From an uncultured virus (IMG/VR IMGVR_UViG_3300028115_001312) (taxonomy: Duplodnaviria > Heunggongvirae > Uroviricota > Caudoviricetes), in IMG/VR virus record IMGVR_UViG_3300028115_001312, positions 1 to 64,000 of that record: DNA of 64,000 nt, one strand, 5' to 3'. A program made the translations under genes and the position numbers. Under the pieces are notes generated by a model. The model saw only the letters and a list, made by a program, of their open reading frames with translations. It was not told the origin of the DNA and searched no databases. Numbering within the stretch: position 1 is the stretch's first letter; every line of letters starts with the position of its first letter. Below, piece after piece: positions 4,726 through 39,767 of this stretch.

Positions 4726-5250
4726 CTAAATCATGTTAAGTGCTAGTTCTGTAGTTTCATCTACTCGTCGAGTCCATCCTCTGCCAAATGTTTCAAATGT
4801 GCTAAGACTTTCATAGTATTCCTGTCTTGCTTGTTGAAAATTTGTTATGGTATCTGTTAATCCGTTTTCTTCTATATATTCATCTAATTTTTTAAGTGTG
4901 TTTGGACCAATGCCTCCGTCTGCAACTGTACCAATCATTGTTTGTAAGTATTTTGCACTACGTCCTGTACCTGCATTAACACCAAAATCAAAAACACATA
5001 AATCTAATCCTGCTGGTAATTGATCACCTTTCACTCTATCCCAATAGTTCTTTTTGTAAATTGGTGCAACATCTTCAACAATAAGATCACGCATATCTTT
5101 TTGTTCTATATCTTGTTCAGCACACCATGCTTCATAAACTTTTAGTGTAACACCTAAGTTAGTTTCACCACCTGGATCGCTTGGATGATTTACATATCCA
5201 CCTTCATGATGTAGTATTGTTTCTATACATTTATCGTAATTTTCTTGCAT
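4726..5250 (-). CDS. Glycoside hydrolase family 108 endolysin with peptidoglycan-binding domain
   Basis: HEGGYVNHPSDPGGETNLGVT, FDFGVNAG, ADGGIGPNT, FGRGWTRR. Confidence 0.92.
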   Translation of the reverse strand: MQENYDKCIETILHHEGGYVNHPSDPGGETNLGVTLKVYEAWCAEQDIEQKDMRDLIVEDVAPIYKKNYWDRVKGDQLPAGLDLCVFDFGVNAGTGRSAKYLQTMIGTVADGGIGPNTLKKLDEYIEENGLTDTITNFQQARQEYYESLSTFETFGRGWTRRVDETTELALNMI

Positions 5251-13565: not shown

Positions 13566-13642
13566 TGGTGCACCAGGAAGGATTCGAACCTCCGACCCTC
13601 GGTTTCGTAGACCGATGCTCTATCCAGCTGAGCTACTGGTGC
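13566..13642 (-). tRNA. tRNA-Arg (ACG)
   Basis: GCACCAG acceptor stem, anticodon arm TCGGT-CTACGAA-ACCGA, GTTCGAATC T loop, encoded CCA. Confidence 0.95.
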
Positions 13643-30231: not shown

Positions 30232-30320
30232 TGGCGGACAGTGTAGGATTCGAACCCACGGTACCTTTTGGGTACAACGGATTAGTAATCCGCCGCTTTA
30301 AGCCACTCAGCCAACTGTCC
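30232..30320 (-). tRNA. tRNA-Ser with anticodon ACT (unusual A34)
   Basis: GGACAGT acceptor, anticodon arm GCGGA-TTACTAA-TCCGT, long variable arm GTACC-CAAAA-GGTAC, GTTCGAATC, G73 plus CCA. Confidence 0.9.
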
Positions 30321-32030: not shown

Positions 32031-32106
<76 letters not shown>

Positions 32107-35256: not shown

Positions 35257-36312
35257 CTATTTAAATAAATTAGCACTTATATTCTGTTGGTACATTTGAT
35301 TGTAAAAGTCAATTGATGCTACTTGTTTGAACTTGCTTTCACACATAATGTCAAATTCTTTGTTAAATTGTATTGCCCATTCATTAACTGCAGAATTCCA
35401 GTACATGTCACTGTGGGCTCTTAGTTTAGCTTTTTTGTAATTGTCTTCAAGTAGAGTATTGTAATTAGGTTTTGTTATTGAACAATGATCAACTAGGTAA
35501 TCTTCTCTGCTGACACTGTAATGTATGACAGGCCTTACACCTCGCCAACTGTCTTTTATGCGAGATACTCTTTCGTCCAGGGGCGAGATGTATTCACCCG
35601 TTTTAACCCAGTGGTGGTGTATATCGAGAACGAGGGCACAGTGTTCCGTAAGTTCGAGACTCGCATCCAGTCCCCATGAATTCTCATCATTCTCGATTGT
35701 AAGGACATTTCTCGATTCCGGAGAAAGTCTTGGGAGGATTGAAATGATGCCTTGTGGACCTTTTCTACCTGCGATATGTACGTTGCATTTGGCGTCCTGG
35801 AAGGACTTGCCATATCCCATGTACCTGAGGACATCGGTGTGATATTCATATTCTTCTATGCTCCTATCAACAATATCTGGATTATCGCTTGCAAGCACAG
35901 TAAACTGACCAGGGTGCATACTAATCCGTACATCAAGAGCACGAGCTTTATCCCCGACAGGTGCAAGATGTGTTTCGAGATACTGGCGTACATCAGGTAA
36001 CTGCCAATAGTAACTCCAACTAGACTCAGTGTAAGCAGGCAATATGCTACTGCCCAATCGAACCATTCGTAACTCATTAGGTAAACTCCCTACGTAAGTA
36101 ATTAGTCTTTCAACACTTTTAATATTGTGTTGCATAATATCCCACAAACGTTGTTCTGCAACTTCTTTAGTCTGTCTGTTAAGCCATGTAATAGTTGTAG
36201 TACGTTCATTAAGTGGACGTTCTATTTCTTCTAACTGTTTTTTCTTTAGTGTACGGTCTGGATGAAAATACTTACATGCAAACCCAATACGATGTATACT
36301 GTTATCAAACAT
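35257..36312 (-). CDS. uvsE: UV damage endonuclease UvsE/UVDE
   Basis: RIGFACK, RLGS, SMHPGQFTVLAS, NVH, IENDE, LDIHHH, HYS, AHSD, MCESK. Confidence 0.92.
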   Translation of the reverse strand: MFDNSIHRIGFACKYFHPDRTLKKKQLEEIERPLNERTTTITWLNRQTKEVAEQRLWDIMQHNIKSVERLITYVGSLPNELRMVRLGSSILPAYTESSWSYYWQLPDVRQYLETHLAPVGDKARALDVRISMHPGQFTVLASDNPDIVDRSIEEYEYHTDVLRYMGYGKSFQDAKCNVHIAGRKGPQGIISILPRLSPESRNVLTIENDENSWGLDASLELTEHCALVLDIHHHWVKTGEYISPLDERVSRIKDSWRGVRPVIHYSVSREDYLVDHCSITKPNYNTLLEDNYKKAKLRAHSDMYWNSAVNEWAIQFNKEFDIMCESKFKQVASIDFYNQMYQQNISANLFK

Positions 36313-36355
36313 ATACTTAATATAGCATATAAACTAGGTATGTCAACCTATCAAA

Positions 36356-36523: not shown

Positions 36524-37069
36524 ATGATTAGAAAAATATTTATTTACAGCCTAGCTGTATTCTTCATTGGCATGGCTAATGCAGAAACAATAGTAACAGA
36601 AAGCACAACGAACAGTAAAATTATTACTGAAGGAAATATGGAAACAACTGTAAAATCACCACCACCGAGTGCTATTAGTCCGCAGTTTAGTAGTGGCAGT
36701 AATAGTGATTTATGTACAATTGGTGTTGCCGGTGCAGTACAAACACAGATATTAGGTATAAGTGCAGGTACTACATTTACAGAAGACAACTGTATAAGAT
36801 TAAAAAATGCAAAGACACTATATGACATGGGCATGAAAGTTGCTGCAGTTAGTGTAATGTGTCAGGATAAGAAAGTATTTGATGCTATGATGATGGCAGG
36901 TACACCATGTCCTTATGAAGGTAAAATTGGAGAGGCAGCCAAGATTGGTTGGGAATCACACGAAGATAAAAAGAAACATGAAAAGAACGGTAAGGAAGAA
37001 CAAGTAGATGTTAAAAAAGCTGCTACTTGGAGTATTGGTGGGATTTTATCCCTACTATTGTTACTCTGA
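36524..37069 (+). CDS. Exported Cys-containing protein with hydrophobic C-terminal tail
   Basis: Signal peptide ANA|E; four Cys; ends WSIGGILSLLLLL. Confidence 0.75.
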   Translation: MIRKIFIYSLAVFFIGMANAETIVTESTTNSKIITEGNMETTVKSPPPSAISPQFSSGSNSDLCTIGVAGAVQTQILGISAGTTFTEDNCIRLKNAKTLYDMGMKVAAVSVMCQDKKVFDAMMMAGTPCPYEGKIGEAAKIGWESHEDKKKHEKNGKEEQVDVKKAATWSIGGILSLLLLL

Positions 37070-37901
37070 TAACATTGCACCATATTATGGTACGACTGGT
37101 AATGCTGCTCAAAGCGGACACAGTTGGAGTATGAAAGATGTACTACCTGCACCACCTGGCTTAGATATTAATGGAGTATTTTATAGATACACTGCAAATA
37201 AAAATCCTGAAGATGATATGAAAGTTCATGTACAAAATAAAAATGCAAACGGTACTGGATATGTTTTTAGAGATACAGAAGACTGGTCAGGTGCACCAGG
37301 AGGAATAGAAGTTAGAAAGGTTATTGGAATAGGTGATATCCCTAGAGAAGCATGGGGAGATGGTTCTATAGAAGTAGAGGGTACAGGTACTGTAGATGAT
37401 GCGAGTGTTATCTACAGTTACAAAGTTGATCCTTGTTATGACCCACAATTTAGTCCAAGTTGTCCAGGGTATAAGACACCAGTGCCTGTTGTACCTACAG
37501 TTAATCTAGATGATTTATATGATGCTACAAAAGATGAGTTTGTTAATTTAAACGATGAGGAAAAATTATCTATAGAAGAAAATGAAGAAAGACTAGCTGA
37601 GGAAGAAGAAAAAGAAAAAGAAGAAGCTGAAGAAAAGAAGAGAAAGTATAGATTAGAAAAATTAATGTCAGCATCTGATACTGCAGCACTTTTTGCAGAA
37701 AATCAAAGAATAGAACAAATGAATAATATTATGCAAAATCAGATTAATAATACGTATCTTGCCGCAACTATACCAGGTGGTCAGTACAAAGAAACAATTA
37801 GATTGGTAGATGCTAAACTACCAGATAGCAAAGCCGGGTTGAGAAACGGCTTAGCACAACAGATATTGCATGAGAAAATGATTTCTCAGCAATACAAATA
37901 G
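37008..37901 (+). CDS. Exported protein: beta-rich domain, Cys pair, charged coiled coil
   Basis: Signal-like N-terminus; DPCYDPQFSPSCPGY; E/K-rich helix. Confidence 0.75.
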   Translation: MLKKLLLGVLVGFYPYYCYSDNIAPYYGTTGNAAQSGHSWSMKDVLPAPPGLDINGVFYRYTANKNPEDDMKVHVQNKNANGTGYVFRDTEDWSGAPGGIEVRKVIGIGDIPREAWGDGSIEVEGTGTVDDASVIYSYKVDPCYDPQFSPSCPGYKTPVPVVPTVNLDDLYDATKDEFVNLNDEEKLSIEENEERLAEEEEKEKEEAEEKKRKYRLEKLMSASDTAALFAENQRIEQMNNIMQNQINNTYLAATIPGGQYKETIRLVDAKLPDSKAGLRNGLAQQILHEKMISQQYK

Positions 37902-37910
37902 GAGAGAAAA

Positions 37911-38414
37911 ATGCTCAAAAAGGCAAGTATAATAGTTGCTATGAGTTTATTCACATTATCAGCACAAGCTGTTGATGTACCAATAAGTGGAACTGTGCAA
38001 TCACGTTGTGTAATAACAACTGATACACCAGGTACATATGGAAACCCAAATGCTTATACACTAACAACAGCTGCCGCCGACGGTGGTGTACAGCCTATTG
38101 TAAGATATGATGTAACATTGGCTGATGCTTATTATGCACAAATTACTACACCAACTTCATTTAGTACTAGCCCGTCACTTAATGATACAGTATCATGGAC
38201 AGGCTCTACAGAAGTTAGTAGCGTAAGTGATGCAACAGGCATGGCAGGTTATGAAAGTGCAAAGACAGTATCTGGACAAACTACACAGTTTGATCTAACC
38301 GCAACTGGTTCTACATGGTTTAAGTCTACTTCGGTTGCTACAAATGGTGGAAACAAAGCATTTCCAGGTGGTAACTATTCAGCAACAATTGAAGCGGTGT
38401 GTGTAGCAAAGTAA
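37911..38414 (+). CDS. Exported fimbrial-subunit-like (pilin-like) protein
   Basis: AGGAG SD; signal AQA|V; ISGTVQSRC near N-terminus; Thr/Ser/Gly-rich beta strands; C-terminal G.Y.A strand. Confidence 0.6.
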   Translation: MLKKASIIVAMSLFTLSAQAVDVPISGTVQSRCVITTDTPGTYGNPNAYTLTTAAADGGVQPIVRYDVTLADAYYAQITTPTSFSTSPSLNDTVSWTGSTEVSSVSDATGMAGYESAKTVSGQTTQFDLTATGSTWFKSTSVATNGGNKAFPGGNYSATIEAVCVAK

Positions 38415-38798
38415 ATGTATAAATATTTTATAACATTATGGTTGATTCTGTTTTCTCATGGTGCTTTTAGTCATGAGATGACTCCAACTTATCCTAAATG
38501 GAGTTATGCATATATGGATGATTTAATTGTCACCCGTATGCAAATTTTCAATAAAAGGAATGATGTTGAATATTATGAGATAGGAGTGTTCGATAAAGAC
38601 TGGAGACCTATTCCATTTGTATCTCAATATACAATATTGAATATAAAATATTTGGAACGTGCAGAAGTAGATGTTTATATTAGAGAAGTTGACAAATACA
38701 ATGCTGAATACGTATGTAGTAGGTCAAAGATGAGGAATGAGGATTTAAAATCTTCAAGTATATCATCTAAAATATGTTCTAGATTCAAGCATGAATAG
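38415..38798 (+). CDS. Exported protein resembling a single-domain pilus chaperone
   Basis: Signal AFS|H; MTP..., IFNKR...YEIGVFD..W..IPF Ig-like pattern; Cys pair. Confidence 0.5.
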   Translation: MYKYFITLWLILFSHGAFSHEMTPTYPKWSYAYMDDLIVTRMQIFNKRNDVEYYEIGVFDKDWRPIPFVSQYTILNIKYLERAEVDVYIREVDKYNAEYVCSRSKMRNEDLKSSSISSKICSRFKHE

Positions 38799-38800
38799 GT

Positions 38801-39232
38801 ATGAAAAAATTTGTATTTACAACACTAACACTTACAGTTTTATCTAGCACAGCATTCGCCAATAGCAGTTCATTAAATCTTCAATTACCAAACGCATCGG
38901 GTAATTATTCTAGCGATAAATTTAAAGCAGGCGATTTAGATTGCCAAAATGCTATTGGTGGTAGTACCAATTTGGAATTTGGTGTGACTGGTATAATAGA
39001 CAACTATCAAAGTCCTTTTGACGACAATACAACTATAGGCAACAGTACTAAGGATGTTGGAGTATATGCAAGAATCACAATACCGCTTGACGGTCCTAAA
39101 GAACGTATTAACTGTAACACACTCTATCAATTAGAATTAAAGAAGAAAAGATTGGAAGTTTTAAAATTAGAGCAAGAACTTAAAAAGTTAAGAGAATTAC
39201 AAAGCCAATCTAAACAAGGTTTGGAGAAATAA
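38801..39232 (+). CDS. Exported protein with amphipathic beta hairpin and C-terminal coiled coil
   Basis: Signal AFA|N; NLEFGVTG and VGVYARITIPL strands; Cys pair; LELKKKRLEVLKLEQEL. Confidence 0.72.
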   Translation: MKKFVFTTLTLTVLSSTAFANSSSLNLQLPNASGNYSSDKFKAGDLDCQNAIGGSTNLEFGVTGIIDNYQSPFDDNTTIGNSTKDVGVYARITIPLDGPKERINCNTLYQLELKKKRLEVLKLEQELKKLRELQSQSKQGLEK

Positions 39233-39233
39233 C

Positions 39234-39767
39234 ATGGCAAAAGATTTAGGTGAAGAAATTGAAAACATGGAAGAAGGTATAGAGAACTTAAAGAATAAAC
39301 AGTTCCGTATCCTTGGCTTCAAAGTTAGTTTTATGTCAATATCTGCTCTTATTGCAGTTATTGGTAGTGTACTTGGTGCATTGTATGGTGGCTTTTTAAT
39401 GTATCAAAAAGTAGAACAGGCTATAGAATTTGTAGAACAACAAGAAGAATACGAAGCAAAAATCAATGCATATGACAAACGTATGCAAATCATGGAATCC
39501 AAAATGGAAGACACTGTAGAATATACACGTGACATCAAAGGCGGGTTGCGTGATGATATACTACGTATTGAACAACAAGCAGACAGAACAGAAGACATGG
39601 TTCGTAAAAGTGTGGACGATGTCCGTAACATGATAACTGATGCCGAAAGTAGATTTGAAACTAAAAGAGATAGTTTGAGAGAAACAGTGAATCGTGATAC
39701 TAAAGAACTAGAAGATAGACTTATGCGTAAAATACAACGGGCATTAGACAATCCGTTAGCAAATTAA
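39234..39767 (+). CDS. Membrane-anchored coiled-coil protein
   Basis: GGAG SD; one TM helix then long coiled coil ending ALDNPLAN. Confidence 0.72.
   Translation: MAKDLGEEIENMEEGIENLKNKQFRILGFKVSFMSISALIAVIGSVLGALYGGFLMYQKVEQAIEFVEQQEEYEAKINAYDKRMQIMESKMEDTVEYTRDIKGGLRDDILRIEQQADRTEDMVRKSVDDVRNMITDAESRFETKRDSLRETVNRDTKELEDRLMRKIQRALDNPLAN

Follow-up and report, generated by a model that had tools for sequence, protein, structure and literature searches.

Why does the catalytic core of a phage DNA-repair gene carry two long open reading frames (ORFs) in a second reading frame? The question is raised by a 64,000-nucleotide stretch of DNA from an uncultured virus (hereafter the window; positions 1 to 64,000 of IMG/VR record IMGVR_UViG_3300028115_001312), in which a preliminary description had proposed a hidden two-gene operon overprinted on uvsE, a gene for a UV-damage endonuclease. 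The window belongs to a 75,429-base contig (G000) with 34% GC from a large uncultured aquatic phage. Both ORFs exist on the minus strand, in the +1 frame of uvsE, where they had been placed (36077-35856, 73 amino acids, here ORF A; 35849-35556, 97 amino acids, here ORF B). The Shine-Dalgarno (SD) motifs reported upstream of the two ATG codons, AGGGAG at 8 nt and AGGAG at 11 nt, are present, and the GC counts reported for the region, 31/60 at 35581 and 21/60 at 35401, are right. Judging from the sequences of about a hundred homologues, A and B are very probably real protein-coding genes under selection. The best explanation as a whole is that uvsE contains two conserved +1 frames that are very likely translated and likely serve as early host-interaction factors, to which we give a probability of roughly 0.5. 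The features on which the argument rests are as follows.

35257..36312, minus strand: uvsE (uvdE), UV-damage endonuclease of 351 amino acids, intact, the overprinted gene (Pfam, PHROG and PDB matches)
36086..36091, minus strand: SD of ORF A, AGGGAG, 8 nt before the ATG, in UvsE codons V74-G75-S76
35856..36077, minus strand: ORF A, 73 amino acids, +1 to UvsE codons 79-152, small membrane protein predicted to fold as a helical hairpin
35988..36053, minus strand: predicted membrane segment 1 of ORF A, about residues 9-30 (hydrophobicity against a synonymous-recoding null)
35874..35942, minus strand: predicted membrane segment 2 of ORF A, about residues 46-68 (hydrophobicity against the same null)
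35861..35865, minus strand: SD of ORF B, AGGAG, 11 nt before the ATG, in UvsE codons R150-S151, within the end of ORF A
35556..35849, minus strand: ORF B, 97 amino acids, +1 to UvsE codons 155-252 and overlapping the ENDE and DxHHH motifs

Openness and constraint of the +1 frames

How unlikely is such openness? With the UvsE protein held fixed and its codons redrawn from genome usage, none of 20,000 draws had one or no +1 stop over UvsE codons 79-251, and none contained even one nested ORF of at least 60 codons with an SD and an ATG in uvsE. The codon-shuffle null that the preliminary description had proposed therefore places the openness of codons 79-251 beyond chance. Across the 77 genes of at least 120 amino acids in G000, four nested ORFs of at least 60 codons with SD and ATG were found (null mean 0.19, maximum 1 in 200), two of which sit in uvsE. 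Another, a +1 ORF of 87 amino acids at 40200-39937 (minus strand) within a HAD/nucleotidyltransferase gene (41137-39764), is not conserved, being open in 2/44 homologue representatives, and could be lineage-specific or due to chance; its failure indicates that the conservation test discriminates. The fourth, a +1 ORF of 66 amino acids, lies in codons 164-230 of a methyltransferase-like gene (46695-45889, minus strand).

We gathered 347 uvsE loci and dropped 14 that were partial or contained a stop or an N. The 183 distinct sequences gave 113 representatives with <90% nucleotide identity, and setting aside 10 distant ones left 103 with 60 to 91% UvsE identity to the window; trees were built by FastTree. 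Two of the ten, L221 and L262, branch within the tree and have neither ORF, and including them raises the denominators to 105. The core of B (codons 158-218) is free of +1 stops in 91/103 representatives (91/105 counting these two), and A (codons 79-146) in 72/103 (72/105). Scattered +1 stops, which had been named in advance as speaking against nested genes, are absent from these relatives; stops stand at fixed places, with A terminating at codon 147, 148, or 152 in 70 of the 72 A-open representatives and B at codon 252 in 60 and at codons 219-229 in 31 of the 91 B-open ones. Both frames are open in 69 of the 103, B alone in 22, A alone in 3, and neither in 9, meaning that A and B are lost separately and do not form an obligate pair. 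The idea of a hidden two-gene operon thus holds for the layout, since in the window the A stop lies 6 nt upstream of the B start and overlies the B ribosome site, but not for joint retention.

The distribution of A and B is narrower than that of UvsE. Among the 10 sequences set aside, all have stops in the A frame, 8 have stops in the B core, and none carries an intact A and B. The UvsE homologues of the cultured phages NCTB, Yoloswag, JA13, SNUABM_32, and Aeh1 all have stops in the A frame, and all except Yoloswag have stops in the B core; the start layout occurs only in NCTB, with four stops downstream. Phage-type uvsE genes (54 to 59% identity) also lie on contigs of bacterial metagenome-assembled genomes (L241, L242, and L243); the first two lack both nested ORFs, and in L243 (55% GC) the B core is open but lacks a ribosome site.

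Is the openness maintained by avoidance of stops? Counts were made in the first 41 representatives, chosen regardless of frame openness. The numbers of +1 stops seen and expected are 4/108 in the B core, 36/120 in A, and 34/90 in the B tail; outside the nested ORFs they are 190/170 and 183/158. NTA codons, which produce a +1 stop when followed by a purine, make up 3/283 before a purine in the B core and 34/297 in A, compared with 60/203 and 118/261 before a pyrimidine; the comparison figures outside the nested ORFs are 184/444 and 184/469. The depletion of +1 stops anticipated in the preliminary description is therefore real, NTA being avoided only where a +1 stop would form. Part of the B core is hard to close, with 1.2 to 4.9 stops expected per sequence.

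Silent divergence was compared in 60 disjoint close pairs of 80 to 99% nucleotide identity, excluding I, L, V, M, and W codons, so that stop avoidance cannot cause a lowered value. UvsE-silent divergence inside and outside the frame is 0.117 and 0.195 where A is open (lower inside in 32/41 pairs, p = 2e-4), 0.135 and 0.192 for the B core (41/54 pairs, p = 9e-5), and 0.052 and 0.184 for the B tail where B is long (35/36 pairs). The controls give 0.200 and 0.190 where A is closed (8/19 pairs), 0.212 and 0.207 where B is closed (3/6 pairs), and 0.190 and 0.207 for the tail region where B ends early (10/18 pairs). Silent divergence is thus reduced over the full length of the open frames and not past their stops, and UvsE-silent change is cut by 30 to 70% only in lineages with the ORF open, so that the expected drop in synonymous variability withstands both closed-lineage and same-region controls. 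In the same pairs, the rate at which +1 stops come and go is 0.0015 per codon in the B core and 0.0042 in A, compared with 0.019 and 0.024 outside. An all-against-all comparison, close to saturation at about 70% identity, gave no signal for A, and the position-1 NN/NS ratio, which has the expected direction inside A yet is also low in one outside region, was left unused.

Two other causes were considered and rejected. An antisense gene does not account for the pattern, antisense frames being open in 6 to 24 of the 103 representatives (14/103 for the antisense ORF 35525-35842); the +2 frame of uvsE is full of stops, and no other frame behaves like +1. Recombination with a GC-rich donor, the other outcome named in advance as adverse, is not seen either. 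The shift in base composition is no overall rise in GC: third-base shifts differ by segment, with T at the third positions of the two membrane segments of A and C in B. In each of the four parts of uvsE, whether inside or outside the ORFs, the window has its nearest relatives in one and the same clade. A third-base choice that follows the chemistry of the +1 product explains the GC patch without a donor.

Start signals, predicted products, and B-like proteins

How are the two frames started? Three layouts were found for B. In the first (52/103), GGAG lies at Glu153-Glu154 and ATG at codon 158 in 52/52; in the second (29/103, including the window), GGAG lies at R150-S151, never with ATG158 or the E153-E154 site, with TTG or ATG at codon 155 or ATG at codon 153 as the start; in the third (three representatives), GGAG lies at Met155-Glu156 and is followed by ATG160. 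The spacing from site to start is about 10 to 11 nt in the main layouts, and a pair of site and start is present in 86/91 B-open versus 3/12 B-closed representatives. GAG is the Glu codon in 26/35 and 32/41 cases at sites 153 and 154, compared with 96/435 outside. On the tree, the E153-E154 site and ATG158 share 8 changes (mean 1.7 and maximum 4 for 92 control sites), and in 11 independent contrasts the site-bearing member always has ATG158, while the partner lacks it in 9. In the subclade of the window and in L287, TTG155 has become ATG, a switch that also changes UvsE. For A, GGAG with ATG at codon 79 is found in 54/103 representatives, 52 of them A-open; the other 20 A-open lineages mostly use codon 73 as the start, preceded by a weaker site of the AAGG type. 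Conservation of the SD and ATG, another expectation of the preliminary description, is thus borne out in the form of a B ribosome site and start codon that switch together. The A stop on or beside the B ribosome site is the layout of translational coupling, and we infer that translation of B is coupled to that of A. In two sequences (L031 and L187), A extends to codon 159, stops at codons 159 and 161 close the usual start of B, and codon 167 is a possible new one.

What would the two frames encode? A two-helix membrane protein and a Ser/Thr-rich protein had been suggested, with the caution that +1 shadow frames look hydrophobic by default. Segment 1 of A is more hydrophobic than its synonymous-recoding null in 51/52 and 20/20 A-open representatives (mean z 2.35 and 2.52), compared with 15/24 A-lost ones (z 0.23). 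Segment 2 exceeds the null in 50/52 (z 1.55) versus 7/20 (z -0.71), and a polar tail replaces it in lineages that start A at codon 73. The first helix is accordingly kept in all A-open lineages, but the second in only 52/72. The caution applies at codons 249-268, where hydrophobicity is the default in all groups, but default hydrophobicity is not the cause of the two segments of A, as the A-lost controls indicate. The AlphaFold model of A is a hairpin of helices 3-34 and 41-72 (predicted local distance difference test [pLDDT] score, 72).

ORF B is indeed Ser/Thr-rich, with 27.5% Ser/Thr versus 12% in the null and 21% F/I/L/M/V versus 43%, and the composition is near null in lineages that lost B. 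The product has a mean net charge of +5.5 and a polar start that varies over codons 153-160, without a signal peptide, and its AlphaFold model (pLDDT 47.7) is predicted to be disordered except for a short helix at residues 39-50. In sum, A is selected for membrane helices and B for a Ser/Thr-rich, non-hydrophobic, predicted disordered chain. Protein searches found no named homologues of A or B, and Foldseek against viral structures gave no match at E = 0.001, the B model being too poor as a query; a holin entry for A at E = 4.4 is noise.

Does B also exist outside uvsE? All 91 nested B copies contain the pattern [KR][TM][TM][KNRS], which is the +1 shadow of the UvsE ENDE motif. Several B-like database proteins lack this shadow and carry insertions or deletions (P0002/P0007, the six-member P0023 cluster comprising P0023 and P0028 to P0032 and seen in several sources, and P0033), meaning that they cannot sit inside an intact uvsE. 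They are most simply read, on their sequences, as probable free-standing descendants of B, which provides a lead. In two singletons, P0009 and P0012, A and B form a single chain that reads Gln exactly where TAG normally stands. The A-B junction lacks a stop in 0/183 distinct sequences; the two singletons may stem from gene calling with TAG=Gln or from errors. Other candidates were discarded as UvsE/+1 chimeras that most likely reflect frameshift errors (P0003, P0013 to P0016, P0018, P0020, P0021, and P0025 to P0027) or as repeat noise (P0017, P0022, and P0024).

The sister lineage with short B has a third nested +1 ORF, ORF C, of about 52 amino acids at codons about 245-297 (for example, in L015, uvsE 554-1600, and L049, 1263-2339), which is closed in the window. 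It is open in 20/31 short-B versus 0/60 long-B representatives, an ATG at codons 243-247 occurs in 24/31 versus 5/60, and NTA before a purine amounts to 14/175 versus 61/118. The silent-site signal is weak (0.192 versus 0.236 and 0.293; 10 pairs). The product would have one membrane segment and a basic tail, its hydrophobicity being that of a default shadow.

Host gene, transcription, and possible roles

The overprinted gene belongs to the UvsE/UVDE family. The protein matches PF03851 (UvdE; E = 1.5e-38, 133 bits against a cut-off of 24), PHROG 8420, and the UV endonuclease structures 3bzj (E = 6.9e-20) and 2j6v from Thermus thermophilus, and its relatives include the proteins of phage NCTB, the closest cultured match (46.7% identity), and Erwinia phage Yoloswag. 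Residues H133, H179, E207, D230, H233, H264, H300, and E325, which we take to be the metal ligands, are invariant in 113/113 representatives, arguing that uvsE is not a pseudogene. The phage also encodes a clamp loader, PhoH, and baseplate and virion proteins; the closest cultured matches of the clamp loader are the Pseudomonas jumbo phages PA5oct and Paride (56% identity), and related contigs reach 200 to 380 kb. Upstream of uvsE, on the opposite strand (36524-39767, plus), lies a cluster of six genes of no known family, mostly with signal-peptide-like starts, relatives of which are present in RNA runs. ARAGORN finds three tRNA genes in the window (13566-13642, 30232-30320, and 32031-32106; Arg-ACG, Ser-ACT, and Thr-TGT), of which the ACG and ACT anticodons are unusual.

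One promoter was found at uvsE.

36319..36346, minus strand: sigma-70-type promoter, TTGACA at 36346-36341 and TATATT at 36324-36319, TG before the -10 element, 11/12 matches

It ends 6 nt upstream of the uvsE ATG, so that the predicted transcription start falls at the ATG and the transcript is likely leaderless and early or middle. This presumably leaderless uvsE mRNA would carry ORFs A and B as well. The same layout occurs in 24/99 relatives with enough upstream DNA.

How might these pieces work together? uvsE is intact and evidently older than the nested frames, which distant relatives lack, and each nested frame has a ribosome site and a start codon that selection maintains. Host sigma-70 polymerase would make one early mRNA from the uvsE ATG, on which UvsE is read leaderless, and ribosomes would also initiate internally at A and, coupled to the A stop, at B. 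A would enter the host inner membrane through its first helix and bind a membrane target, most plausibly blocking the DNA entry of a second phage or modulating a host membrane protein, like T4 Imm. B would remain in the cytoplasm, where its short helix and basic Ser/Thr-rich chain would bind nucleic acid or a protein of the host. Both genes presumably arose de novo by overprinting, each being retained or lost on its own, and in some lineages B seems to have left uvsE to become a free-standing gene. A role in early host interaction, resting on anatomy, promoter type, and analogy, has about an even chance of being right. A broader reading is tentative, and we hold it with less than even confidence: the +1 frame of uvsE may be a gene nursery in a widespread clade of aquatic jumbo phages, with two to three genes born de novo forming a second operon through the catalytic core, its ribosome sites renewed by compensating changes and read more strongly than the leaderless host gene, with B released as a free-standing gene and A and B acting as new host-takeover or exclusion factors without known relatives.

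Several observations weigh against translated host-interaction genes. Accepted +1 changes are no more conservative inside the frames than outside by BLOSUM62 (p = 0.83 for A, 0.083 for B), and UvsE itself dictates much of the resemblance in amino-acid sequence between copies of A or of B. A and B match no Pfam or PHROG family, no named ESM Atlas cluster (the Atlas gave leads only), and no viral fold, which bears especially on the proposed role. The charge bias of A is partly seen in A-lost controls and does not settle the membrane orientation. Two distant sequences, L240 and L243, have a stop-free B core without a ribosome site. Start-site blocks are more alike within a layout (0.88 to 0.90) than their flanks (0.64 to 0.70), and since the homologues recombine, some layout switches may be block transfers. 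The DNA encoding the B-like proteins was not found among viral contigs or cultured phages, so these proteins could be remnants of decayed or mis-assembled uvsE genes. In the four of 24 RNA runs that were analysed, metatranscriptome contigs cover the region, but assembled contigs show neither strand, start, nor level.

Could A serve lysis instead, as a class II holin-like membrane-damaging protein or an inhibitor like phiX174 E or levivirus Sgl, with B as partner or regulator? Class II holins have two helices, a charged C-terminal tail, and a place in a late lysis cassette. In the lineage of the window, A has the size and shape, with two membrane helices in about 70 amino acids, and its stop is presumably coupled to the B start, but it ends directly after helix 2 without a charged tail, helix 2 is missing in 20/72 A-open lineages, and no holin family in Pfam or PHROGs matches. 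The sole promoter found is of sigma-70 type at uvsE, and there is no endolysin or spanin nearby, the nearest lysozyme-like gene lying at 4726-5250. The loss of A in 31/103 relatives would not be expected of an essential holin. A precedent exists in single-gene lysis genes, which originate de novo, for the most part in the +1 frame of another, conserved gene, and encode a membrane helix (PMC7693330); nevertheless, a lysis function is unlikely here.

We consider it just as doubtful that A and B work with UvsE in UV repair, B as a cofactor or inhibitor that binds DNA or UvsE and A as a membrane anchor, sometimes fused. The shared mRNA, the basic character of B, and the A-B chains of P0009 and P0012 would fit such a partnership. 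However, UvsE of distant phages works without A and B, both fusions are singletons with Q at the usual TAG while 0/183 sequences are fused, and B-like proteins occur that cannot lie within an intact uvsE.

A third idea, to which we assign a low probability, is that the frames are translated but regulatory: ribosome traffic would tune UvsE output or mRNA stability, and the peptide sequence would matter little. The start sites are conserved more strictly than the peptides, B varies in length from about 60 to 97 amino acids, the BLOSUM62 test is negative, and A and B have strong sites where UvsE is likely leaderless. Against this, silent divergence is low along the entire open frames and not beyond their stops, the third-base choice tracks the peptide chemistry (T in membrane segments, C in B), and B-like proteins exist that cannot overlap UvsE.

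Recoding is very improbable, whether as +1 ribosomal frameshifting from UvsE into B or as TAG read-through yielding A and B as one protein. An SD-like GAGGAG directly before TTT-GAA in the commonest layout, and a TAG that alone separates A from B in 50/72 A-open lineages, would suit it, but the site-to-start spacing of about 10 to 11 nt holds across three layouts, TTG155 became ATG in the subclade of the window and in L287 despite the UvsE change, the A-B stops include TAA in 22/72, and the 75-kb contig encodes no suppressor tRNA among its 3 tRNAs (the genome being incomplete). Finally, the view that there are no hidden genes, only a by-product of UvsE amino acids, codon bias, an RNA or DNA element, or a GC-rich donor, can point to the part of the B core that is hard to close and to recombination among homologues, but it is already largely refuted, as stop avoidance, start covariation, silent-site constraint, +1 chemistry, and the recoding null all contradict it, other frames are not kept open, and a second nested ORF in the genome failed the same test (2/44).

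Probable gene birth by overprinting and known nested genes

What does two selected frames within uvsE mean for phage genomes? Nested genes are generally associated with very small genomes or with lysis cassettes, and here a large double-stranded DNA (dsDNA) phage would keep a second, multigene layer of coding where an enzyme is most constrained. Among living relatives one can see where the genes are present, where they are lost, how their start sites turn over, and where B has probably escaped, an unusually complete natural series for gene birth by overprinting. Standard annotation misses these conserved genes of abundant aquatic phages, and A and B are two small new proteins open to direct testing. 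Viral proteins that arise de novo by overprinting tend to be accessory and rich in disorder (PMC8227390), which fits B. No published description of ORFs nested in uvsE was found in the literature listings and opening lines of abstracts that were searched, subscription journals and bioRxiv supplements lying outside them.

How do A and B compare with nested and functionally similar phage genes already described? Gene E of phiX174 has its own ribosome site and lies in the +1 frame. It is nested in gene D of this member of the Microviridae (PMC8227390), and likewise A is a small membrane-protein gene wholly within a larger gene in a shifted sense frame. Unlike in phiX174, here a large dsDNA phage with no obvious lack of space has two tandem genes (three in the sister lineage) running through the catalytic core of an enzyme of DNA repair; there is no sequence link to E, and a lysis role is unsupported. 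In dsDNA phages, lambda Rz1 is an embedded o-spanin gene, +1 nested in Rz, whose product has a signal peptide with a lipobox. The start of B has neither, its host gene encodes no i-spanin, and it does not lie in a lysis cassette.

The sgl genes of leviviruses are closer in mode of origin. Of the active ones, 21/33 lie in rep in the +1 frame (PMC7693330), and like A and B they arose de novo in that frame and were missed by annotation, and like A they combine an SD with a membrane helix; they are recent, scattered, and mostly in variable parts of Rep. The uvsE frames differ in being conserved across about a hundred representatives in a dsDNA phage, with B overlapping invariant catalytic motifs. 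For function, the best analogue of A is T4 Imm, a small (9.3 kDa) helical inner-membrane phage protein that blocks genome entry (bioRxiv 10.64898/2026.03.06.709160). Imm, unlike A, is free-standing and has four helices in the model cited there, and A does not match the Imm family in Pfam at E = 0.1 (26 A copies) or in PHROGs (the A of the window); superinfection exclusion by A is suggested by this analogy. Nested phage genes are thus already known, and what sets those of uvsE apart is their tandem position in the enzyme core of a jumbo dsDNA phage, the turnover of their start sites, and the probable escape of B.
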